A stretch of 14,893 nt of DNA from a virus. Lineage: Duplodnaviria; Heunggongvirae; Uroviricota; Caudoviricetes. This document shows positions 2,638 through 13,525 of the stretch, in pieces; position 1 is the stretch's first letter, and the number at the start of each line of letters is the position of its first letter. The position numbers and the translations under genes were made by a program. The notes under the pieces are model-generated. The model was not told the DNA's origin and searched no databases. It was given only the letters and a program-made list of their open reading frames with translations. The stretch lies in the IMG/VR virus record IMGVR_UViG_2737471841_000009, positions 1 through 14,893 of that record. One strand, given 5' to 3'.

Positions 2638-3101
2638 GCCTCCATCGCTTTATCAGGTTTGTCGGTGTTACTGCCCTGACCGTTCTCTCTGTGACGATGC
2701 CCGTTATAGGCAAGCCGCATCGCTGACATGGTGGTGCCGCTGGAGTCGCACAGGTCTTTCACCTGTCCTGTCACTTCCAGGTCCATTTCAAAACGTGCTT
2801 TAGGTGAATTGCGAAACGTGATCGTTTTACCTGCACCGTCCACCACGATCCCCTCCCGGGTCAGCGTCACGGACTGCCCCTGATCGTCATAGACAGCCAC
2901 CTCACCCGTCTGCAGCCCTTTCAGGCGGTAGCGCCGGTCCGACACCGTAACAACCACCGCATGAGAACGGTCACCATCCGGAAACAACACCACCGCTTCC
3001 GCACCGCTGTTTGCTCTTGCGGTAAAACCGTAGGGTTCAAGATGTTCAACCCCGGCTTTGGGTTCCCGGCCATTTACCCGTAGCGTGACATTGTCGTTCA
3101 T
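2634..3101 (-). CDS. Small baseplate protein, gpV / Mu gp45-like (putative spike or hub component)
   Basis: 155-aa ORF with ATG at 3101 and an ATGA overlap onto the upstream gene. It sits between the DNA-circulation-like and gp46-like genes. Function is inferred mainly from synteny. Confidence 0.4.
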   Translation of the reverse strand: MNDNVTLRVNGREPKAGVEHLEPYGFTARANSGAEAVVLFPDGDRSHAVVVTVSDRRYRLKGLQTGEVAVYDDQGQSVTLTREGIVVDGAGKTITFRNSPKARFEMDLEVTGQVKDLCDSSGTTMSAMRLAYNGHRHRENGQGSNTDKPDKAMEA

Positions 3102-4252
3102 TGCACTGGCACCTTCAGAGGGATCACCGGCACAAAGCCGGGATGCGTAATGGCATTACGCCGGATAATGTCCGCGTCACGCGCCGCGTTATCAAACCAG
3201 GTCGCCGCCAGCACCAGCGCGGGTAAAACCTCATCCGGTGTGCGCTGAATGATCCGTGCAGACTGTTCAAGGCGCGTGTTGATATCCGCATTCAGATCTG
3301 CTTTCACCCGGCGCAGCGCCAGAAACAGCGCATCGCTGGTTGTACGGGACAACTCCTTATCAATTGCCGTATTCAGTGTGTCGCGAATGTCAGTCAGTTC
3401 TTCCCACGTCGGCAGGTCAACCGTGTTTTTCACCGCCGGTGCATTGTTCAGTGCCGGATGCGTGACGGAAGGCCAGCCAGTGCTCTGCGCGGGTGTTGTT
3501 GCCTGCCCCACTGCGGAATTCTGCATCACCGCGGAAGTTGTTGGCGCAGGCAATCGGGTGACGGCATACGCCGCTTCGCTGATTGCGGTTGTACGAAGGG
3601 TGCTGGCAACCACGTTACGCTGCTGCGTCGCCGTGGCGGTGGTTTTACTGTCCGTTTTCCAGACGCCGCGCGGTTGCAGATCGCTGCCGAGGCTGACACC
3701 GGAAAGCGTTTTGATCATGGTGACCAGGTCGCTGGCGTTACCATAAAGGCGTTTCCCGGTACGCCACATTTTCTGCACCTGCTCAACGAAATTTTTGCCT
3801 GACGATGGCGGCGGCAGAAGTACCGAGATATCCCCCTGCAACAGCCTGGCGGCATCCGATACGGCAGAATCCACCACTTTCATCGCATCAGAAACATACC
3901 CCAGCATTATGCTGGCATTACCGATAACGTCGTTCTGCACGAAATCCGCCACACCATCGATACTGAAACCGCTGAAGCTGTCACTGATGCAGTCATCCAG
4001 TGCAGAACAGGATGACATCAGCGTCTGCGCCGTCGCCGCACCTGATGTGGGGTAAGAGAGTTCTCCTGCTTCGACAAACTTCAGGTCAAAGCGGACAATA
4101 CGCCCTTCACTTTTCGATGTGCTGACCCGAACTTCCCCGTCAACACAGACTTTCAGCTCACCGTATGTCGGATGGACAAGCGTGCCGGGACCGGGTTTAT
4201 TCAGCGCGTCAATCAGGCGATCGCGCTGGTCAAAGCAGTCATCTCCCACCAC
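3098..4252 (-). CDS. Mu gp43-like 'DNA circulation' / baseplate hub family protein; 5' end apparently disrupted
   Basis: 384-aa ORF whose first codon at 4252 is GTG. The segment VVGDDCFDQRDRLIDALNKPGPGTLVHPTYGEL resembles the conserved core of the DNA-circulation N-terminal domain. The same frame stays open upstream to about 4340 with no SD or ATG, while a separate SD-preceded ATG ORF (4397-4239) lies in the +1 frame. Confidence 0.5.
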   Translation of the reverse strand: MVGDDCFDQRDRLIDALNKPGPGTLVHPTYGELKVCVDGEVRVSTSKSEGRIVRFDLKFVEAGELSYPTSGAATAQTLMSSCSALDDCISDSFSGFSIDGVADFVQNDVIGNASIMLGYVSDAMKVVDSAVSDAARLLQGDISVLLPPPSSGKNFVEQVQKMWRTGKRLYGNASDLVTMIKTLSGVSLGSDLQPRGVWKTDSKTTATATQQRNVVASTLRTTAISEAAYAVTRLPAPTTSAVMQNSAVGQATTPAQSTGWPSVTHPALNNAPAVKNTVDLPTWEELTDIRDTLNTAIDKELSRTTSDALFLALRRVKADLNADINTRLEQSARIIQRTPDEVLPALVLAATWFDNAARDADIIRRNAITHPGFVPVIPLKVPVQ

Positions 4253-4397
4253 ATAAGCCGTGATGGACGGGCGGAAAGTGACTTTTCCCAGATCTTCGGT
4301 ACGCGCCCCAGACGGTCGCCTCCACTGCGTCGCGGTTCTCCATCTTCTTCACTTCAGTAATGGCCTTGCGGGTTTTCTTTTTGAAAATACCAAACAT
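4239..4397 (-). other. 51-codon ORF (MFGIFKKKTRKAITEVKKMENRD...) out of frame with the downstream baseplate gene; possible remnant N-terminus or frameshifted 5' part
   Basis: ATG at 4397 preceded by AAGGA. The ORF ends at TGA 4239-4241, 13 nt inside the next ORF, which is in the +1 frame. Confidence 0.3.
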
Positions 4398-4535
4398 CGT
4401 GACTTTTCCTTTTAGTGGGTGAGCCTGCGCCCGGGGGTGACCAGCCCACAGAGAAAGTCACACTGACCATCCCGTAAGCTCACCCCTGAAAGGCTCTGTG
4501 GTTTTTTTGATGTGCGCCGGACGTGGCGCGGATAT

Positions 4536-4559
4536 AAAAAAGGCCCGCCGCAGCGAGCC
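4536..4559 (-). terminator. Intrinsic terminator downstream of the AraC-family gene
   Basis: On the minus strand a 7-bp GC-rich stem (GGCTCGC / GCGGGCC, one G-U pair) with a TGCG tetraloop is followed by T6 (plus-strand A6 at 4536-4541). It lies 26 nt after the stop at 4585. Confidence 0.6.
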
Positions 4560-4584
4560 TGTTTTCAATGAGTGCAAAATTCAA

Positions 4585-5328
4585 TTATTCTTGAGTAACA
4601 CTTAAACTCATCTCATTGAATGCAGCCATCCTGTAACCTGCCGGTGTAACACCAAAATAACTCCTGAATACGCTGATAAAATAAGATGTAAAATTATAGC
4701 CACACTGAGCAGCGATTCTGTTGATGGCGCAACGAGATTGATTCAACAGCATTGCTGCCATTCTCATTCTCTCTGTAAGCAACAACTCACTGAAACAGGT
4801 GCCTTCTTCTTTCAGTCTTTTTTTTAACAAACTTTCACTGATACATAACCGCGAAGACACATCTCTCAGAGTCCAGTTTGCTGCAATGTCCGTACGAAAC
4901 AATGCACTAAGCCTGTCACTAATATTGCCAATACACGCGGTCAGAAACGACGAAAACATTTTCTCTGATGAGAAAAACGCCAGACACGAAAAGGAAAGCA
5001 TTTCCGCTAAATTGTCCGTATGAATCTTTTCCTCACAAAGATAATCAATCAGGATGCCCATCAATTCTGCCTTGGGAAAACTCACGCAAAGATATCGTGG
5101 TATTTGCCGGACTAAAACTACATCCTGTTTTTCGTCTCCACACAACAGGTAACGGATAATTGTCGATTCACTGAGACTTATTCGCCGAAAACATTCCGAA
5201 AAGGGCAATAACGATCCAGCTCCCCCCCTGACAAGAAGTGCACTACCACTTTCCAGAGAGAGCTCTTTTCCTTCAAAGAGCACAACAAACGGGGAATGAA
5301 CAAAAACAACAGAACAAGCTTCATTCAT
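4585..5328 (-). CDS. AraC-family transcriptional regulator, AppY/Rns-like subfamily
   Basis: The C-terminal 100 aa show the AraC-type HTH signature (SESLLKKRLKEEGTCFSELL...CGYNFTSYFISVFRSYFGVTPAGY). The gene is visibly AT-rich compared with its flanks. ATG at 5328 is preferred over the TTG at 5388 used by the ORF track. Confidence 0.7.
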   Translation of the reverse strand: MNEACSVVFVHSPFVVLFEGKELSLESGSALLVRGGAGSLLPFSECFRRISLSESTIIRYLLCGDEKQDVVLVRQIPRYLCVSFPKAELMGILIDYLCEEKIHTDNLAEMLSFSCLAFFSSEKMFSSFLTACIGNISDRLSALFRTDIAANWTLRDVSSRLCISESLLKKRLKEEGTCFSELLLTERMRMAAMLLNQSRCAINRIAAQCGYNFTSYFISVFRSYFGVTPAGYRMAAFNEMSLSVTQE

Positions 5329-5450
5329 ATCAATTGCCCTGACATTACTGGTCACAAGATAAGTATATATCGATTTACAAAAATACAAGCCGAAAGACCA
5401 GTATTCGCAACCACCAGCGCGTTTAACGTCCTGTACCGTTTTTCAGGCAT

Positions 5451-5474
5451 AAAAAAACCCGCTCAGTGGCGGGT
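5451..5474 (-). terminator. Intrinsic terminator at the end of the cro operon
   Basis: Minus-strand hairpin ACCCGC-loop-GCGGGT followed by T7 (plus-strand A7 at 5451-5457), about 110 nt downstream of the stop at 5582. Confidence 0.5.
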
Positions 5475-5581
5475 TCTTAAATCTTATCAACGGTAGACAT
5501 ACAAAGCCCATCGTTGGAAAAATCTTATCCATATTTTTTGGAAAATGCAAGCATTATGTCGCCATCTTCGGCGAAAATCAT

Positions 5582-6247
5582 TTATCTCGTCACTTTTCTT
5601 AATTGCGCCTCAGCATATGCTTCTTCCTGCCAGCACTTTGTAACCAGTTTATCAATGACATCTGCATATCCTTTGTACCACTGATAATCTGTCAGGTCTG
5701 GTACCAGCTTCTGGACATGATGCCGCGCCAGTGTGGTTGGTAAACGGCTAAACCGGTTTCCATTGCAACGCCCACAAATCTTATAAACAGGCGTGCCATG
5801 AAGCCGGGTCCTTTTTTCATCCAGGACAATACCTTTACCCTTACACCCTCTGCACGCTGTGCTGACTTCTCCCTTACCATGACAATGCTGACATAGTTCC
5901 TTCAGCAGGCGCTGGTTTATATCGGCGTTCTCTACTTCCTCAATTTCAGGAAGCGATACGAACACCCCACCAGCAGACTGTGCGACAGCATCCGCAATGT
6001 AGTGAGTGCCAGCTGCGCGCTGTAAAACCATTGCCCATCCCAGCGGGAAAATCTGATCGCCATCGGCACGAAGGCGGTTAAATAATGCGCTCTCTGTTAC
6101 ATCCAGCCAGTCAGCAGCTTCAGCGTAACCCCCCGGCAACGCTGCGATAGTTTTTCTGACAGCTTTCACGTACCACTTAGGCTGTTTTTCTACTTTCCAG
6201 TGATGCTTACCCACGGCTATCTCCTTAAAACTGTGGTTACTTTTCAT
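5582..6247 (-). CDS. CII-position regulator (YdaT-like?) with a C-terminal Cys-rich zinc-ribbon
   Basis: ATG at 6247 overlaps the 3' end of the cro-like gene by 11 nt (the ORF track extends to a TTG at 6319). The gene occupies the cII/ydaT slot after cro. C-terminal motifs CQHCHGKGE, CRGCKGKG and CGRCNGNR are DnaJ-like CxxCxGxG repeats. Confidence 0.45.
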   Translation of the reverse strand: MKSNHSFKEIAVGKHHWKVEKQPKWYVKAVRKTIAALPGGYAEAADWLDVTESALFNRLRADGDQIFPLGWAMVLQRAAGTHYIADAVAQSAGGVFVSLPEIEEVENADINQRLLKELCQHCHGKGEVSTACRGCKGKGIVLDEKRTRLHGTPVYKICGRCNGNRFSRLPTTLARHHVQKLVPDLTDYQWYKGYADVIDKLVTKCWQEEAYAEAQLRKVTR

Positions 6248-6485
6248 CTGATGAATCTTTAATCTTTTGAAAAATATCTGGACGTAATTTTTCTTTTGAT
6301 ATGCCAGTGGTCTTTTCAATGAATATCGAGAGCTTTGCAGGGGGACGCTTTTCTCTGTTCAACCAGTTCCAGACATGTTGTTGCTTTACTAAATGACCGC
6401 TGCTGGCTGTGAGCTTCCGAGCCAATTCTGATTGACCACCAGCCAGAGCGATTGCCTCCGATAAGGCTAATTGCTCAGGTGTCAT
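6237..6485 (-). CDS. Cro-like repressor (YdaS / Cro-CI HTH family)
   Basis: 82-aa ORF with ATG at 6485 preceded by AAGGAG. It is transcribed divergently from the CI-like gene across an operator-rich intergenic region. The sequence (QSELARKL...LRPD) resembles the YdaS-type Cro family. Confidence 0.65.
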   Translation of the reverse strand: MTPEQLALSEAIALAGGQSELARKLTASSGHLVKQQHVWNWLNREKRPPAKLSIFIEKTTGISKEKLRPDIFQKIKDSSDEK

Positions 6486-6620
6486 AGCTTTCTCCTTTTT
6501 AGGTAGTTAAGTTGTTACGAGTTGCAAGAATACAACATTAACAACTTTTATCACAACTTTTAGGTGTTGGAAAGCTAAAACATAAAGTTGTAACCTCATC
6601 AAAAAAGAGAGGGATATGTT
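6486..6620. promoter_or_regulatory. OR-like divergent promoter and operator region between cro and cI
   Basis: 135-bp AT-rich intergenic region with repeated half-site-like motifs: AAGTTGT at 6509 and 6585; ACAACTT at 6541 and 6553; AGGTGTT at 6562. The 11-mer CATAAAGTTGT (6581-6591) recurs at OL (8234-8244). Confidence 0.65.
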
Positions 6621-7307
6621 GTGAAAACACTGGCAGAACGATTAAAGATAGGTAGAGAGAAAGCTGGCATGAGCCAAGCTCAACTAGCTGAAAAAATTGG
6701 ACTTTCACAACAATCTGTAGCCAAAATAGAGAATGGCGAAACTCTACAACCGCGCAAAATTAAAGAAATTGCAAAAGTTTTAGGTGTATCACAAAAGTGG
6801 TTACAACTTGGTATTGAAGACAACGCATCCATACCTGATCTTGTTGTAAAAGAAGCAGAAAGCACCGCATTAGACCCCGATATTTTCGTAAACATTCCTG
6901 TTTTAGATGTCGAGTTATCGGCAGGTAACGGATGTCTGGCTGAAATAGTTGAATCAGCTATTGACTGGTTTCCGTTAAGAAGAGCAGATTTGAGAAAATC
7001 TGGCGTATGTGCATCTAATGCCAAGATCGTAAAAATATGGGGGAACAGTTTATTACCGGTTCTCAATAATGGAGATCTTGTTGCCGTTGATATTTCTCAA
7101 ACCGTTCCTATTCGTGATGGCGATCTTTATGCCGTACGAGATGGTGTATTGCTAAGGGTTAAAATACTTATCAACTTACCTGACGGTGGCTTGATTCTTA
7201 GAAGCTTCAACAAAGATGAGTACCCAGATGAAATACTCACCTTTGAAGATAGACGAGCCAGAATTCATGTTATAGGTAGGGTATTCTGGTCATCGCGAAC
7301 TTGGTAA
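6621..7307 (+). CDS. CI-like prophage repressor (XRE-type HTH plus S24 LexA-like autopeptidase domain)
   Basis: GTG start at 6621 preceded by GAGAGGG. N-terminal HTH (MSQAQLAEKIGLSQQSVAKIENGE). An Ala-Gly candidate cleavage site (LSAGNG) and a Ser/Lys dyad (WGNSLLP and LLRVK) are present. Confidence 0.85.
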   Translation: MKTLAERLKIGREKAGMSQAQLAEKIGLSQQSVAKIENGETLQPRKIKEIAKVLGVSQKWLQLGIEDNASIPDLVVKEAESTALDPDIFVNIPVLDVELSAGNGCLAEIVESAIDWFPLRRADLRKSGVCASNAKIVKIWGNSLLPVLNNGDLVAVDISQTVPIRDGDLYAVRDGVLLRVKILINLPDGGLILRSFNKDEYPDEILTFEDRRARIHVIGRVFWSSRTW

Positions 7308-8180
7308 TGCATCGAAAAGCATTTCTTCAGAAATAATTTTAAGTTTTGCACCATTATCATCCCTATAAGATATAGCCTTTTCGATCTTCCTTCCGTGACT
7401 TGAGAATTTCCAATCACGGGAGGAAAGCGTCCCAATTACTAAAAAATCCAACTTTTGAGTAATTCCACTACTGATGTTCCCACCAGCATTTTTAATCAAA
7501 TTTTCAACTACGGCTCTCTTTCCTGCAACAAAAGTGCCTGTAAGACAATAGGTTTTACCCTCTAACTCTATCGAAGCCCCTACATCAATAGGCAGCCTGG
7601 TCGCCAAACCATCCACCACCCCACTTTCCAAGTCACATCCTGTGAAGTCTACTAATGCCTTATGTAGAGTTAAACTCTCATCTTCAGTAATAACACCATC
7701 TTTAAGAATTTCCTTTACAAGTGCATAAAGTTTTTTTCCTGGGTAGTTGTTCTTCAAAGCTCCATTTTGCTCAAGCCACCAATTAAGATATCTTATTTCT
7801 TCTTGAGTTAAGTTCCGATCAGCAATTAATCCTTTACATAGTCCATTAAGTAAATGGACATCTACATCCTTGGAGTAAAAATCAATTTCAGGGATATCAA
7901 GAATTTCCCTCTGTATTTGGAGAAGGCTATTTTTAAGGTCATCACGTTCTTCTGATGTGATTATTCCATCCGCAAGAATATCCGACACCCGTGCTGATAG
8001 ACTTTTTATAACTCCATTATTGATAATCTGCTTTGCTTCAAGTAACCATGTATCTAAGTAAAGAACCTCCTCTTCACGGACAACTCCATCTGCAATGATT
8101 CCATCAATGATGCTAATCAAGTTAGCAAATAACTTGTCCCGGTTCTGTGTGTAATTAAAAGCGTAAAGCGCGTCTTCCAT
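7290..8180 (-). CDS. Moron protein: four tandem ~40-aa repeats plus a C-terminal BRCT domain; candidate exclusion or defence effector
   Basis: ATG at 8180 preceded by AGGAGG (the ORF track extends to a GTG at 8210). Repeats centre on IIADGVVREEEVLYL, ILADGIITSEERDDL, LIADRNLTQEEIRYL and ILKDGVITEDESLTL. The C-terminus (GKTYCLTGTF...LDFLVIGT...KLKIISEEMLFDAL) matches the BRCT fold pattern of LigA-type BRCT domains. Confidence 0.8.
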   Translation of the reverse strand: MEDALYAFNYTQNRDKLFANLISIIDGIIADGVVREEEVLYLDTWLLEAKQIINNGVIKSLSARVSDILADGIITSEERDDLKNSLLQIQREILDIPEIDFYSKDVDVHLLNGLCKGLIADRNLTQEEIRYLNWWLEQNGALKNNYPGKKLYALVKEILKDGVITEDESLTLHKALVDFTGCDLESGVVDGLATRLPIDVGASIELEGKTYCLTGTFVAGKRAVVENLIKNAGGNISSGITQKLDFLVIGTLSSRDWKFSSHGRKIEKAISYRDDNGAKLKIISEEMLFDALPSSR

Positions 8181-8230
8181 ACAACCTCCTTTTTTTGATA
8201 ATCCTTGCACTCCTTGGCTACTCGTTCAAA

Positions 8231-8290: not shown

Positions 8291-8382
8291 AACAACGAAC
8301 AGGCAGGACGCCCACGAAGTAGCCGCCGGTGGCGTATGAATGACCGGATGATTCGTTAAATACTATGTGTAAGAGAGCGCAA

Positions 8383-8586
8383 ATGAACCGTTATTTCACA
8401 TGCTCGTTTTGTGGCGCAAACGAGCTGCAGGCAAAAAAAATCATCGCCAAAGGCGGAAAAGATGAAGTTGCTATCTGCTCTGAGTGCGTAGTCTTGTGTG
8501 TCGGGGCATTAATCAATATCAGCACAACTATTCAGTTCACACCAAATGAGAATGCGCCTTTAGATGCGCGGAAATCTGGAGGTTAA
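8383..8586 (+). CDS. Small ClpX-type C4 zinc-finger protein; first gene of the early-left operon
   Basis: ATG at 8383 preceded by AAGAGAG (the ORF track starts at an upstream ATG at 8365). The motifs CSFCG and ICSECVVLC match the ClpX N-terminal zinc-binding domain pattern (CSFCGK...ICDECV). Confidence 0.6.
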   Translation: MNRYFTCSFCGANELQAKKIIAKGGKDEVAICSECVVLCVGALINISTTIQFTPNENAPLDARKSGG

Positions 8587-9129: not shown

Positions 9130-9450
9130 GAGAATCCTTAGCGTTGTGGTGAATGCGGCTCAGCGCACGCGGGTTAAGGTTGAGGCTGACAGTCGACCTT
9201 CTGTGGATACCCACCCGTCTGGTGTGCAACCTTCGCCAGGCACCGGGAGGCACCCGGCACCACAACTTTATGCTGTGTGTAGTCCTGGCGGTACCAGTTT
9301 GTACCCTTGCTTCCGGCTGGTACCGTCCTTTTTACAAAACAGAGAAGAGCATCACCGGACGACGGGCTCATAACCCAATCCATCCGGGCGGCTGCTACCG
9401 CAGGTGTTCTTCTCTGTTTTGTGGAGAAACTAATCGGCCTTGCAGGGTCG
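9130..9450 (+). other. GC-rich, ORF-poor structured segment; candidate structured RNA or cis-regulatory element
   Basis: All frames carry Arg/Pro-rich ORFs with no SD. Perfect 15-bp inverted repeat 9334-9348 / 9408-9422 (ACAAAACAGAGAAGA). An 11-bp stem 9287-9297 / 9317-9327 is followed by CTTTTT. A small hairpin CCGGG-AGGCA-CCCGG lies at 9243-9257. Confidence 0.4.
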
Positions 9451-9470
9451 ATATGATGAGGAGCAGCAAA

Positions 9471-9833
9471 ATGGCTAGCGAACGCAGTACTGATGTGCAG
9501 GCATTTATCGGGGAGCTGGACGGCGGCGTATTTGAAACCAAAATCGGCGCAGTTCTCAGTGAAGTCGCTTCCGGTGTGATGAACACGAAAACCAAAGGTA
9601 AGGTCTCACTCAACCTGGAAATCGAACCATTTGATGAGAACCGTGTGAAAATCAAACACAAACTCTCATATGTTCGCCCGACTAACCGCGGGAAAATTTC
9701 CGAAGAAGACACCACCGAAACGCCGATGTATGTCAATCGCGGTGGTCGCCTGACTATTCTGCAGGAAGACCAGGGACAATTACTGACTCTTGCCGGTGAA
9801 CCTGACGGAAAACTCCGCGCAGCAGGTCATTAA
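9471..9833 (+). CDS. yfdP: YfdP-like prophage protein (120 aa)
   Basis: ATG at 9471 preceded by GAGGAG; length and sequence match my recollection of K-12 CPS-53 YfdP. The ORF track's upstream extension (from 9153) lies in GC-rich non-coding-looking sequence and is rejected. Confidence 0.6.
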   Translation: MASERSTDVQAFIGELDGGVFETKIGAVLSEVASGVMNTKTKGKVSLNLEIEPFDENRVKIKHKLSYVRPTNRGKISEEDTTETPMYVNRGGRLTILQEDQGQLLTLAGEPDGKLRAAGH

Positions 9834-9898
9834 TATCGTTCTTAATTAACTGATTATTTATCTCATCACTGAATATCTTTATATAGTGAGGACTTATT

Positions 9899-10723
9899 AT
9901 GTCTCAGAACTTAGACGCAACCGCAATTAATCAAATCCATGCCCTTATTTCTGCTCAGGGTGTTAATGAAATTATCAGTAAGATTGGTGCCGATGCTGTG
10001 GCATTGCCTGAGAATTTCCGCATTCATGATCTGGAAAAATTTAATTTAAATCGCTTCCGTTTCCGTGGTGCGCTTTCCACTGCCAGCATCGATGACTTTA
10101 CCCGTTATTCTAAAGATCTTGCAGATGAAGGCACCCGCTGCTTTATCGATGCTGATAATATGCGTGCCGTCAGTGTGCTTAACCTGGGTACTATTGATGA
10201 ACCAGGTCACGCAGATAACACCGCCACTCTCAAACTGAAAAAGACAGCACCGTTCTCTGCTCTGTTGTCTGTTAATGGCGAGCGTAACTCCCAGAAATCA
10301 CTGGCAGAATGGATTGAAGACTGGGCCGACTACCTTGTGGGCTTTGATGCTAATGGTGACACCATTCAGGCAACAAAAGCGGCTGCGGCGGTCCGTAAAA
10401 TCACGATTGAAGCAAACCAGACCGCTGATTTTGAAGATAATGACTTCAGCGGCAAACGCTCCCTGATGGAGTCTGTCGAAGCGAAGACCAAAGACATTAT
10501 GCCAGTGGCATTTGAATTTAAATGCATTCCGTTTGAAGGTCTGAAAGAACGTCCGTTTAAATTACGCCTCAGCATTATCACTGGCGATCGTCCGGTACTG
10601 GTTCTGCGCATTATTCAGCTGGAGGCGGTGCAGGAAGAAATGGCTAACGAATTTCGTGATCTGCTTGTTGAGAAATTCAAGGACAGCAAAGTAGAAACCT
10701 TTATTGGTACTTTCACCGCCTGA
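9899..10723 (+). CDS. yfdQ: YfdQ-like prophage protein (274 aa, uncharacterised DUF family)
   Basis: ATG at 9899 preceded by GTGAGGA. Length and N-terminus ([17 protein letters not shown]) match recalled K-12 YfdQ. Colinear with the yfdP to yfdT order. Confidence 0.7.
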
Positions 10724-10735
10724 TTTCATTACTGC

Positions 10736-10757
10736 AAATGCCCCTGCGGGGGCATTT
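10736..10757 (+). terminator. Intercistronic hairpin (weak terminator or attenuator) between the yfdQ-like and yfdR-like genes
   Basis: Perfect 9-bp stem AAATGCCCC / GGGGCATTT with a TGCG tetraloop. The downstream tail ATGGAAACG is not a clean U-run. Confidence 0.35.
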
Positions 10758-11387: not shown

Positions 11388-11740
11388 ATGTTTTCGAAAT
11401 GGAAGGGTTTCTTCGTGGGAGATGTGTACCGCGAGATCTGAAAGTAAATGAAACAGATTCTGAATACCTGGTGCGTAAATTCGATGCGCTTGAAGCTAAA
11501 TGTGCAGCACAGGAAAACAAAGTAATACCAGTGTCAACTGAACTGCCACCAGCAAATGAAAGTGTTTTGTTATTCGATGCTAACGGAGAAGGCTGGCTAA
11601 TTGGTTGGCGTTCTCTCTGGTACACCTGGGGACAAAAAGAAACCGGAGAATGGCAGTGGACATTTCAGGTCGGGGACCTTGAAAACGTCAATATCACTCA
11701 CTGGGCAGTAATGCCAAAAGCACCGGAGGCTGGAGCATAA
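11378..11740 (+). CDS. yfdS: YfdS-like prophage protein (120 aa)
   Basis: Start overlaps the yfdR-like stop; its own stop overlaps the next start (ATGA at 11738-11741). Length matches K-12 YfdS. Confidence 0.65.
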   Translation: MRMNVFEMEGFLRGRCVPRDLKVNETDSEYLVRKFDALEAKCAAQENKVIPVSTELPPANESVLLFDANGEGWLIGWRSLWYTWGQKETGEWQWTFQVGDLENVNITHWAVMPKAPEAGA

Positions 11741-12045: not shown

Positions 12046-12395
12046 TGGAGCCATACAGCCTCACACTCGATGAGGCCTGTCATTTTCTCAAGATATCCAG
12101 ACCGACTGCCATTAACTGGATACGCACAGGGCGTCTTCAGGCAACACGCAAAGATCCCACTAAGAATAAATCTCCTTACCTCACAACACGACAAGCCTGC
12201 ATTGCGGCTCTTCAGTCTCCGCTGCATACTGTCCAGGTGAGCGCGGGTGATGGCATAACAGAGGAAAGAAAATGTCACTCTTCCGCAGAAGTGAAATATG
12301 GTACGCCAGTTTCACATTGCCGAACGGTAAAAGATTTAAACAGTCTCTTGGAACAAAGGACAAAAGGCAGGCGACAGAGCTCCATGACAAGCTAA
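12045..12395 (+). CDS. xis: Excisionase (P22 Xis-like, 116 aa)
   Basis: ATG at 12045 preceded by AAGAGGTGA. N-terminal HTH ([26 protein letters not shown]). 116 aa matches the P22 Xis length. Sits immediately upstream of int and overlaps it by 124 nt. Confidence 0.7.
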
Positions 12396-13435
12396 AGGCT
12401 GAAGCATGGCGGGTCAGCAAACTTGGTGAAATACCTGATATGACGTTTGAGGAAGCGTGTGTCAGGTGGCTCGAAGAGAAAGCACATAAGAAATCACTGG
12501 ACGATGACAAAAGCCGGATCGGATTCTGGCTTCAACATTTCGCAGGGATGCAACTAAGAGACATCACTGAATCAAAAATTTATTCAGCGATGCAGAAAAT
12601 GACAAACCGGCGTCATGAGGAAAACTGGAAACTCAGGGCAGAAGCATGCAGAAAAAAAGGGAAACCTGTTCCAGAATACACGCCAAAACCAGCGTCCGTT
12701 GCAACGAAGGCTACGCATCTTTCATTTATAAAGGCCCTGCTAAGAGCCGCAGAGCGTGAATGGAAAATGCTGGATAAGGCACCAATTCTTAAAGTGCCTC
12801 AACCGAAGAATAAACGTATCCGCTGGCTGGAGCCTCATGAAGCACAAAGGCTGATTGATGAATGTCCGGAGCCATTAAAGTCTGTTGTTGAATTTGCACT
12901 GGCAACAGGCTTAAGACGCTCGAACATCATCAACCTTGAATGGCAACAAATAGACATGCAGCGCCGGGTGGCATGGATAAACCCGGAAGAGAGTAAATCA
13001 AACCGCGCAATTGGCGTTGCGCTGAATGATACTGCATGTCGCGTATTGAAAAAACAAATCGGGAATCATCACCGTTGGGTATTTGTATACAAGGAAAGCT
13101 GTACCAAACCAGACGGAACGAAAGCGCCAACGGTCAGGAAGATGCGGTATGACGCAAACACAGCCTGGAAAGCGGCGCTGAGACGAGCAGGTATTGATGA
13201 TTTCAGATTTCACGACTTGAGACACACCTGGGCAAGTTGGCTGGTTCAAGCCGGAGTCCCGTTGTCAGTGTTACAGGAAATGGGAGGCTGGGAGTCTATC
13301 GAAATGGTTCGTCGATATGCTCACCTCGCACCTAATCACCTTACCGAACATGCACGGCAAATAGACTCGATCCTGAACCCATCGGTCCCAAATTTGTCCC
13401 AGTCAAAAAATAAGGAAGGTACTAATGATGTGTAA
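12272..13435 (+). CDS. int: Tyrosine-recombinase integrase (P22 Int-like, 387 aa)
   Basis: C-terminal catalytic region [15 protein letters not shown]...VRRYAHL (R/H-x-x-R/Y signature). The gene ends 14 nt from the 3' end of thrW, the known P22 attachment tRNA. Length equals P22 Int. Confidence 0.85.
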
Positions 13436-13470
13436 CTTATTGATTTAAATGGTGCCGATAATAGGAGTCG
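13436..13470. other. Prophage–host junction (att core region) at the 3' end of thrW
   Basis: The interval between the int stop and the 3' part of the tRNA; tRNA-integrating phages carry the core homology over the tRNA 3' end. Exact core limits cannot be set without the other prophage end. Confidence 0.4.
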
Positions 13471-13525
13471 AACCTACGACCTTCGCATTACGAATGCGCT
13501 GCTCTACCAACTGAGCTATATCGGC
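13450..13525 (-). tRNA. thrW: tRNA-Thr (anticodon CGU), 76 nt with encoded CCA
   Basis: Reverse complement reads GCCGATATAGCTCAGTTGGTAGAGCAGCGCATTCGTAATGCGAAGGTCGTAGGTTCGACTCCTATTATCGGCACCA. Acceptor stem GCCGATA/TATCGGC, anticodon loop TTCGTAA, T-loop GGTTCGACTCC. Adjacent to proA as in E. coli. Confidence 0.93.

Follow-up and report, generated by a model that had tools for sequence, protein, structure and literature searches.

The antitermination protein Q of phage lambda (PDB 4MO1, 7UBJ-7UBN) represents the family collected in PF03589 (PMC9388147). Its residues 1-44 fold into a torus that forms the RNA-exit nozzle and is required for antitermination, residues 45-60 fold upon contact with the paused complex, residues 61-113 together with residues 153-207 build a four-helix body in which helices H4-H5 constitute a helix-turn-helix (HTH), and residues 114-152 form a zinc-ribbon arm (PMC9388147). 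A lambda Q mutant lacking residues 1-38 has lost antitermination and retains binding to the Q-binding element and to RNA polymerase; downstream of Q, the PR' promoter, a sigma-dependent pause element and a terminator are laid out as a cassette (PMC9388147). A related Q of 250 aa is present in phage SfV and, as YdfT (QuuQ), in the Qin prophage. When this intact SfV-type Q was aligned with lambda Q, its residues 1-120 corresponded to lambda residues 1-125, ending with CEHCAGTG opposite CRDCHGTG, and its residues 159-250 corresponded to lambda residues 116-207, with CRGCKGKG opposite that same CRDCHGTG. On this alignment, the SfV-type Q is a lambda Q with an insertion of about 40 residues in the first zinc knuckle, adding two CxxC pairs to give a total of four.

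The second family relevant here is that of YmfL (NCBIfam NF041471; PF06892, "Phage_CP76, regulatory protein CII"), which is encoded in e14 and, as orf36, in SfV. In SfV/e14-like prophages, ymfL is the gene in the cII position, and its product normally has 183-185 aa. Over-expression of YmfL does not cause filamentation (bioRxiv 10.1101/2020.11.19.390815).

The locus studied here lies in a stretch of 14,893 nucleotides, hereafter the window, in which nucleotides 5582-6247 of the minus strand form an uninterrupted reading frame: 221 codons and a stop codon. An earlier note on this DNA had placed the gene directly after cro, that is, in the cII position, and this location is correct: the ORF adjoins a cro-like gene of the YdaS HTH family (6237-6485, minus strand; PF15943, 7.8e-15; PHROG 35), which is the first gene of the rightward early operon, and lies opposite an apparently intact cI-type repressor gene, recognized by its profile matches (HTH_3 plus S24 peptidase; 6621-7307, plus strand). 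The ORF is thus the second gene of the operon, as ymfL is. The same note had also postulated an 11-nt overlap with cro and translational coupling, both of which depend on the ATG at 6247. This upstream candidate start is not preceded by a Shine-Dalgarno sequence, whereas the GTG at 6212-6214 has TTTAAGGAGATAGCC, with an AAGGAG site, on its 5' side, as is the case for ymfL. That GTG is the start both in the NCBI entry WP_052318743.1 and in all YmfL homologues, which begin with MGKHHWK, and it is the likely start of the ORF. A protein initiated there leaves a gap of 22 nt between cro and the ORF, so that overlap and translational coupling are unlikely. The ORF then extends from 5582 to 6214 on the minus strand and encodes 210 aa plus stop; the product is identical to WP_052318743.1, which NCBI labels "YmfL family putative regulatory protein".

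Profile searches divide this ORF, from end to end, between two families: YmfL/CII-like models cover its residues 12-130, and the Qlambda-family antitermination model covers residues 126-213. The CII-like appearance of the N-terminal part, on which the earlier note had commented, was borne out by matches to PHROG 101 (CII-like; 1.4e-36) and to NCBIfam NF041471 (YmfL; 115 bits, cut-off 90), the latter involving profile positions 2-105 of 143 only. The PF06892 score of 25.2 bits, over profile positions 5-106 of 146, fell slightly short of the cut-off (26); intact YmfL scores 52.5 bits with this model over positions 5-141, the full-length domain being absent from the ORF. PF06892 was the only "CII" match of the ORF in a Pfam scan at E up to 1. 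When the PDB was searched by sequence, no CII chain matched either the ORF product (E up to 1) or intact YmfL (E up to 10), and the latter search returned no solved relative of YmfL at all. For the C-terminal part, PF03589 ("Antitermination protein Q") matched residues 126-213 with 107.1 bits against a cut-off of 26.7, and PHROG 127 ("Q-like") matched with 8.3e-47, over profile positions 141-252 of 253 only.

The C-terminal part contains the three cysteine pairs that had first drawn attention to this gene. They are encoded on the minus strand at 5870-5893 (CQHCHGKG), 5831-5854 (CRGCKGKG) and 5753-5776 (CGRCNGNR). By phmmer alignment, CRGCKGKG pairs with the first zinc knuckle of lambda Q, CRDCHGTG, and CGRCNGNR with the second, CGRCKGVG; the spacing of 22 residues from CRGC to CGRC is the same in both proteins. 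CQHCHGKG is the second CxxC knuckle of the approximately 40-aa insertion that distinguishes SfV-type Q from lambda Q. These motifs had been likened to those of DnaJ and also to those of Q-type antiterminators, and the second of these comparisons is the one that stands. The ORF shares with the DnaJ cysteine-rich domain (PF00684) and with anti-TRAP the CxxCxGxG type of cysteine spacing, and it matches both models weakly (24.7 and 16.2 bits, under the Pfam cut-offs of 32.7 and 32, respectively). Unlike DnaJ, it has three motifs instead of four, the last one being CGRCNGNR. A J domain or DnaJ C-terminal domains gave no Pfam match at E up to 1, and the NCBIfam DnaJ models gave 11-25 bits against cut-offs of 338-585. 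Since intact Q scores similarly weakly with PF00684 (30.8 bits), the likeness to DnaJ is a motif-level resemblance among zinc ribbons.

The ORF product was also compared by tblastn with 50,697 phage records, none of which covers 80% or more of it. Residues 1-157 match proteins encoded in the cII position of mEp460, cdtI and Stx phages, with about 69% identity, and residues 110-221 match phage Q proteins, with up to 99% identity. The extension of the former matches as far as residue 157 could suggest a zinc finger intrinsic to YmfL; intact YmfL has none there, and the extension is a weak alignment.

Both parents of the ORF were found in an intact relative of the prophage, located at the same thrW/proA site in E. 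coli ECCHD184 (L001). Here the genes follow one another in the order cro, ymfL (183 aa), DUF4222, a HTH_36 replication gene, PerC, a Dam-type methylase, a LexA-like gene, RusA, KilA-N, DUF968 and Q (250 aa), followed by the lysis, head and tail genes. The 5' part of the ORF (5904-6214, minus strand) corresponds to codons 1-104 of the 183-aa YmfL (PF06892 positions 5-106 of 146); over nucleotides 5903-6498, the window is 99.5% identical (593/596) to the cro-ymfL stretch of ECCHD184. The last ~80 residues of YmfL, from EVIEQIGSYSKQIR to the Cys-rich tail, are missing. The 3' part (5582-5903, minus strand) corresponds to codons 144-250 of the 250-aa SfV/Qin-type Q plus the stop codon, and nucleotides 5583-5904 are 94.7% identical to the 3' part of ECCHD184 Q. 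At the protein level, this C-terminal stretch of 107 residues, of which SfV/Qin-type Q is the direct parent, is 99.1% identical to Q of Salmonella phage 118970_sal3 and 95.5% identical to SfV Q. The lambda-Q-like N-terminal 143 residues of that parent are gone, and with them the first of its four motifs (CEHCAGTG, CQHCHGKG, CRGCKGKG and CGRCNGNR), as CEHCAGTG falls in the deleted portion of Q. The earlier suggestion that the protein may be a fusion is therefore upheld by two truncated halves that are 95-99.5% identical to separate full-length genes.

The joint between both parts (5902-5905, minus strand) was defined by three-way alignment and by mapping against the intact prophage. In the immediate vicinity of the break (indicated by a caret), ymfL reads ...CGCCTGCTG^GAAGTC, Q reads ...TGGGTG^AAGGAAC and the window reads ...CGCCTGCTG^AAGGAAC; in the longer form of the alignment, the corresponding sequences are ...CAGCGCCTGCTG^GAAGTC, ...GAGTGGGTG^AAGGAACTATGT and ...CAGCGCCTGCTG^AAGGAACTATGT. 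The switch from ymfL to Q occurs at 5903/5904, and the dinucleotide TG is the sole sequence common to both sides. In the protein, YmfL ...NQRLL^EVIEQ and Q ...EEWV^KELCQHC give rise to ...NQRLL^KELCQHC. The break points are 5,648 bp apart in ECCHD184, and this intervening DNA is missing from the window.

Downstream of the ORF, the region expected of a Q gene is still present. A late-promoter cassette is predicted from the sequence pattern at 5449-5550 (minus strand), its elements all lying within 135 nt past the ORF stop codon: a PR'-like promoter (TTGCAT, 17 nt, TAAGAT; 5522-5550), a -10-like AACGAT at 5510-5515 in the initial transcribed region, and a terminator consisting of the hairpin AACCCGCCACTGAGCGGGTT (5456-5475) and a run of seven T. 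AACGAT is the pause element of lambda PR'. The cassette stretch is conserved in two further loci, L007 and L010. After the terminator, an accessory ("moron") gene encoding an AraC-family regulator is located (4585-5328, minus strand), within a 1.18-kb segment (4302-5483) that is not present in the ECCHD184 prophage. The same AraC gene is found in E. coli 08-00022 between a gene of the DUF1133 family, a family of Q-type antiterminators, and the lysis genes.

Comparison with ECCHD184 revealed two additional deletions. The second one, of about 15.6 kb, extends from downstream of Q to the inside of the DNA-circularization (tail) gene, which remains as a 5'-truncated copy at 3098-4301 (minus strand); it took the lysis, terminase, portal, capsid, sheath, tube and tape-measure genes, that is, the lysis, head and most tail functions, and the 1.18-kb AraC segment occupies its place. 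The third one, of 1.15 kb, led to the loss of a baseplate assembly gene, its joint near 3064-3073 showing a short CCGGC-type microhomology. The attachment end of the prophage is marked by the integrase gene (12272-13435, plus strand) and by the tRNA-Thr(CGU) gene thrW (13450-13525, minus strand), which adjoins proA. With these three mapped deletions the prophage is defective and, judging from its gene content, would be unable to replicate, activate its late genes, lyse the host or build particles.

We therefore interpret the ORF as a chimera, in all probability a pseudogene-like relic with the front of ymfL and the back of Q that a single 5.6-kb deletion created in a decaying E. coli prophage. 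The event would have taken place in an SfV/e14-like prophage residing at thrW, next to proA, in the strain represented by draft genome GCA_000798295.1. A single illegitimate deletion, using TG as microhomology, would have fused ymfL codon 104 in frame to Q codon 144, and would have taken out the replication, PerC, Dam, RusA, KilA-N and DUF968 genes. Because the deletion joined ymfL to Q, the zinc ribbon would be ordinary Q sequence and not a new regulator, made up of the arm usual in Q (CRGC...CGRC) and a single remaining knuckle (CQHC). Transcription of the chimera would proceed from PR, and solely upon inactivation of the intact cI.

What the chimera could still do was considered in the light of the lambda Q domain map. 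ORF residues 116-221 (221-aa numbering) align with lambda Q residues 116-207 (E ~1e-17), so that both CxxC knuckles of the arm and the H4-H5 HTH are represented, and the cassette of promoter, -10-like pause element and terminator lies 3' of the chimera as it does for Q genes. Unlike lambda Q, the chimera has no equivalent of residues 1-113 (the torus formed by residues 1-44, residues 45-60 and helices H1-H2), it contains the extra CQHC knuckle contributed by the SfV-type insertion, and an unrelated gene supplies its N-terminus. Regarding the four-helix body, the equivalent of residues 153-207 is present and that of residues 61-113 was lost with the deleted portion of Q; reduced to two of its four helices, the body is not likely to fold in the normal way. 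Antitermination by the chimera is very unlikely because the torus and helices H1-H2 of the four-helix body are missing, and normal YmfL activity is probably lost as well, since the chimera retains neither the final quarter of the PF06892 domain nor the C-terminal tail. We infer this loss of function from the structure-function work on lambda Q. Some binding to DNA or RNA polymerase may persist, given the unbroken reading frame and the preservation of the zinc-ribbon arm, of the HTH and of the cognate PR' region. An AlphaFold2 model of the chimera, built on an alignment of 38 sequences, was uninformative (pLDDT 42.7, pTM 0.25).

The ymfL-Q architecture is extremely infrequent. The joint is absent from all 5,426 complete E. 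coli genomes searched, of which 2,472 (~45%) contain the SfV/Qin Q type. Among approximately 15 billion proteins, the identical 210-aa sequence forms a singleton cluster; it is encoded in two contigs, NCBI JUDJ01000058.1, from which the window derives, and one Logan contig (assembly of SRR2239585). When 1.84 billion cluster representatives were scanned with HMMER, no other protein was found to span both halves, each match corresponding either to the YmfL part or to the Q part; therefore, a conserved and evolving family of CII proteins with a zinc ribbon does not exist among them. Apart from a few sporadic look-alikes, this genome is essentially the only one with such an architecture.

Homology searches also brought up about 30 other rare chimeras with the same Q C-terminus, and their break points on the Q side are strongly clustered. 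Each of them is present in only 1-15 contigs, versus thousands of intact Q sequences, and their contexts correspond to simple deletions in otherwise collinear SfV/e14-like prophages. An analogous joint is also found in the complete chromosome CP063068.1. About 12 independent in-frame fusions occur at Q codon 143/144 (GTG^AAGGAAC), their left partners being ymfL (twice), RusA, KilA-N, PerC, the HTH_36 replication gene, a cro-like gene and DUF968. The left side ends in CTG in all six loci that were checked at the DNA level (the window, L005, L007, L132, L134 and L135). Another set of fusions has its Q-side break at in-frame G(G/A)T^A sites, which fall within the CxxCxG^xG motifs (codons 118, 153 and 166), and its other end at G(G/A)T^A sites of upstream genes. 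The 1,853 upstream codons offer only 22 sites of this type (7 GGT^A, 15 GAT^A), several of which have been used more than once. Two fusions of this set join sequence of the host genes RspA and RspB to Q codon 119. A scan of IMG/VR for non-native joints at the Q site gave none, compared with at least 120 native sites.

The second ymfL-Q joint (P0002) involves a different ymfL allele and a different immunity region. A single origin of both ymfL-Q fusions (P0001 and P0002) is unlikely because SNPs separate the two ymfL halves as close as 6 nt to the joint, and their immunity regions differ. There are 187 in-frame NTG codons upstream, and by our own estimate some 12 events would give about a 1-in-4 chance of one repeat; it is hence plausible that, once the Q site is fixed, both fusions share their left site by chance. 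As a second allele shares the joint and about 12 fusions reuse the Q codon, the ymfL-Q joint does not appear to be a purely random accident.

Several candidate joints and causes were discarded. Proteins of 107 aa beginning with MKELCQHC (P0257 and P0127) had looked like further joints, and their DNA is that of native Q: the gene caller begins at GTG (V143) where an IS3-family element or a scaffold gap breaks Q upstream. An IS1 copy in the Q gene of strain VE-F5, inserted 5 nt off another hot site, has no relation to it. There was no support for DNA hairpins at the break points on the Q side (z = -0.7). By eye, none of the Chi, invertase (Pin) crossover, topoisomerase IB-type CCCTT, IS1/IS10 end, CRISPR I-E PAM, RusA or primase sites fits all the break points. 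That the clustering results from a sequence-specific deletion process in lambdoid prophages, or from selection favouring the expression of C-terminal Q pieces that would dampen late-gene expression (prophage domestication), is in our opinion an unlikely account.

One rival reading is that the chimera has been retained as a useful, dominant-negative "anti-Q": its Q fragment (arm plus HTH, lacking the nozzle), tethered to a piece of the YmfL N-terminus, would sit on the Q-binding element or on RNA polymerase and bring about no antitermination. Such a product would shield the host from late-gene expression by its own prophage and by co-resident prophages of the same Q type. In favour of it, the chimera forms an uninterrupted in-frame ORF that still encodes the equivalents of lambda Q residues 116-207, with the DNA-contacting arm and the HTH; lambda Q without residues 1-38 binds both targets and does not antiterminate (PMC9388147). 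Moreover, the Q-type cassette remains downstream of the chimera, other genomes repeatedly show independent fusions in frame at this Q codon, and the ~45% of complete E. coli genomes with this Q type would make a common target. Against this, the equivalents of H1-H2 are missing, so that the HTH-bearing domain is probably unfolded, all fusions of this kind are very rare and none was found in IMG/VR, with nothing to indicate that they have spread or been selected, their left partners are whatever gene happened to be upstream, and cI represses the chimera in the lysogen. Because the body domain is broken and the chimera has not spread, we consider this role quite improbable.

Still less credit can be given to an assembly artefact, by which the ymfL of a prophage would have been wrongly linked to the Q of the same or of another prophage. 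The source is a short-read draft, and E. coli often has several related prophages sharing these genes. However, both sides have only 2 nt in common at the joint, which a k-mer graph could not bridge; the joint is also present in the separate Logan assembly (SRR2239585), analogous joints occur in other assemblies, including the complete chromosome CP063068.1, and the contig is collinear with the prophage map on either side of the joint. These data render an artefact extremely improbable. A native lysis-lysogeny regulator of the CII/YmfL type that had evolved a DnaJ-like zinc domain, as the location after cro, the CII-like profile matches and the weak DnaJ_CXXCXGXG match could suggest, stands practically no chance of being correct, given that the zinc part is 95-99% identical to the Q C-terminus and the remainder 99.5% identical to ymfL, that normal YmfL (183-185 aa) lacks such a domain, that the DnaJ match is below threshold and intact Q scores likewise, and that no diverged homologue with this architecture was found in 1.84 billion representatives.

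The deletion chimera thus being the preferred interpretation, the earlier proposal of a lysis-lysogeny regulator bearing a zinc ribbon gives way to a plain deletion scar within a prophage that has suffered several deletions, with no diverged family behind it. In database terms, the NCBI label "YmfL family putative regulatory protein" masks a Q antiterminator fragment in half of WP_052318743.1, and zinc-ribbon "CII-like" proteins of this kind are not to be counted as a new class of regulators. With respect to prophage biology, the locus represents a clean and fully mapped case of decay, in which three deletions would have disabled replication, late-gene activation, lysis and morphogenesis, and in which the repressor, cro, the integrase and the AraC-type accessory gene are the survivors. 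Its wider interest lies only in the reuse of the same few Q nucleotides by independent deletions in many genomes.

The break point found in Q at the deletion joint of the chimeric gene (window 5902-5905), where the 5′ part of ymfL is fused to the 3′ part of the antiterminator gene Q, is one of several that are used recurrently. Rare in-frame fusions that arose independently in other genomes have SfV/Qin-type Q broken at these same points. One lies at codon 143/144 (GTG/AAGGAAC, the slash marking the break) and is that used in the window, while the remaining ones are of the form GGT/A, in frame, within the CxxCxG/xG motifs. The left partners vary, and the microhomology is of just 2-7 nt. Apart from the window, joints of this type were located in six related loci: L007 (about 4905), L132 (about 6417), L134 (about 6699), L135 (about 6153), L138 (about 3561) and L140 (about 3233).

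The intact Q gene of E. coli ECCHD184 (locus L001, 34-786, minus strand) contains AAGGAAG followed by GTG (V143), within Q nt 415-432. When Q is broken upstream, gene callers predict a 107-aa ORF starting from the V143 GTG ('MKELCQHC...'; P0257 and P0127, 63 member sequences). With respect to the start of the chimeric gene itself, the 11-nt overlap with cro described in the earlier note depends on an ATG at 6247 that is not provided with a ribosome-binding site. A GTG at window 6212-6214, preceded 6 nt upstream by an AAGGAG site and coinciding with the start annotated at NCBI, is the likely start codon instead.

The Chi octamer (GCTGGTGG) occurs five times in the window, each time on the minus strand (5411-5418, 5967-5974, 6436-6443, 7480-7487 and 11546-11553). 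One of them is located within the ymfL-derived part, the deletion joint being 64 nt downstream; a connection of these five octamers to the deletion could not be established.

Q is also split by an inserted element in E. coli GCA_900449015.1 (L142, 1420-4945). The insertion point lies after '...TTTTATAATGTA', the element ends are TGTAGTGG...CCACTACA and the target duplication is GTA. One gene of the element encodes a reverse transcriptase/maturase of the group II intron type (RVT_1 + GIIM). In two other loci, L143 and L144, the same right-hand element end adjoins an IS3-type transposase gene (HTH_Tnp_1).

Comparison with the intact ECCHD184 prophage revealed, besides the ymfL-Q joint, two more deletions in the window prophage, with joints near window 4301 and near 3064-3073. 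About 15.6 kb, comprising lysis, head and most tail genes, was lost, and a 1.18-kb AraC-family accessory-gene segment is present there instead (window 4302-5483; GC 0.446 vs 0.564 for the adjacent tail genes). A baseplate assembly gene was lost through a 1.15-kb deletion. The genes for a BRCT-domain protein (window 7290-8210, minus strand, overlapping the cI end) and, in the early-left region, for a small ClpX-type C4 zinc-finger protein (window 8365-8586, plus strand) are both conserved in the ECCHD184 prophage. The 1.3 kb spanning window 9448-10739, which include a DUF2303 gene (9899-10723), have no counterpart at this position in that prophage and are a mosaic replacement within the early-left region.
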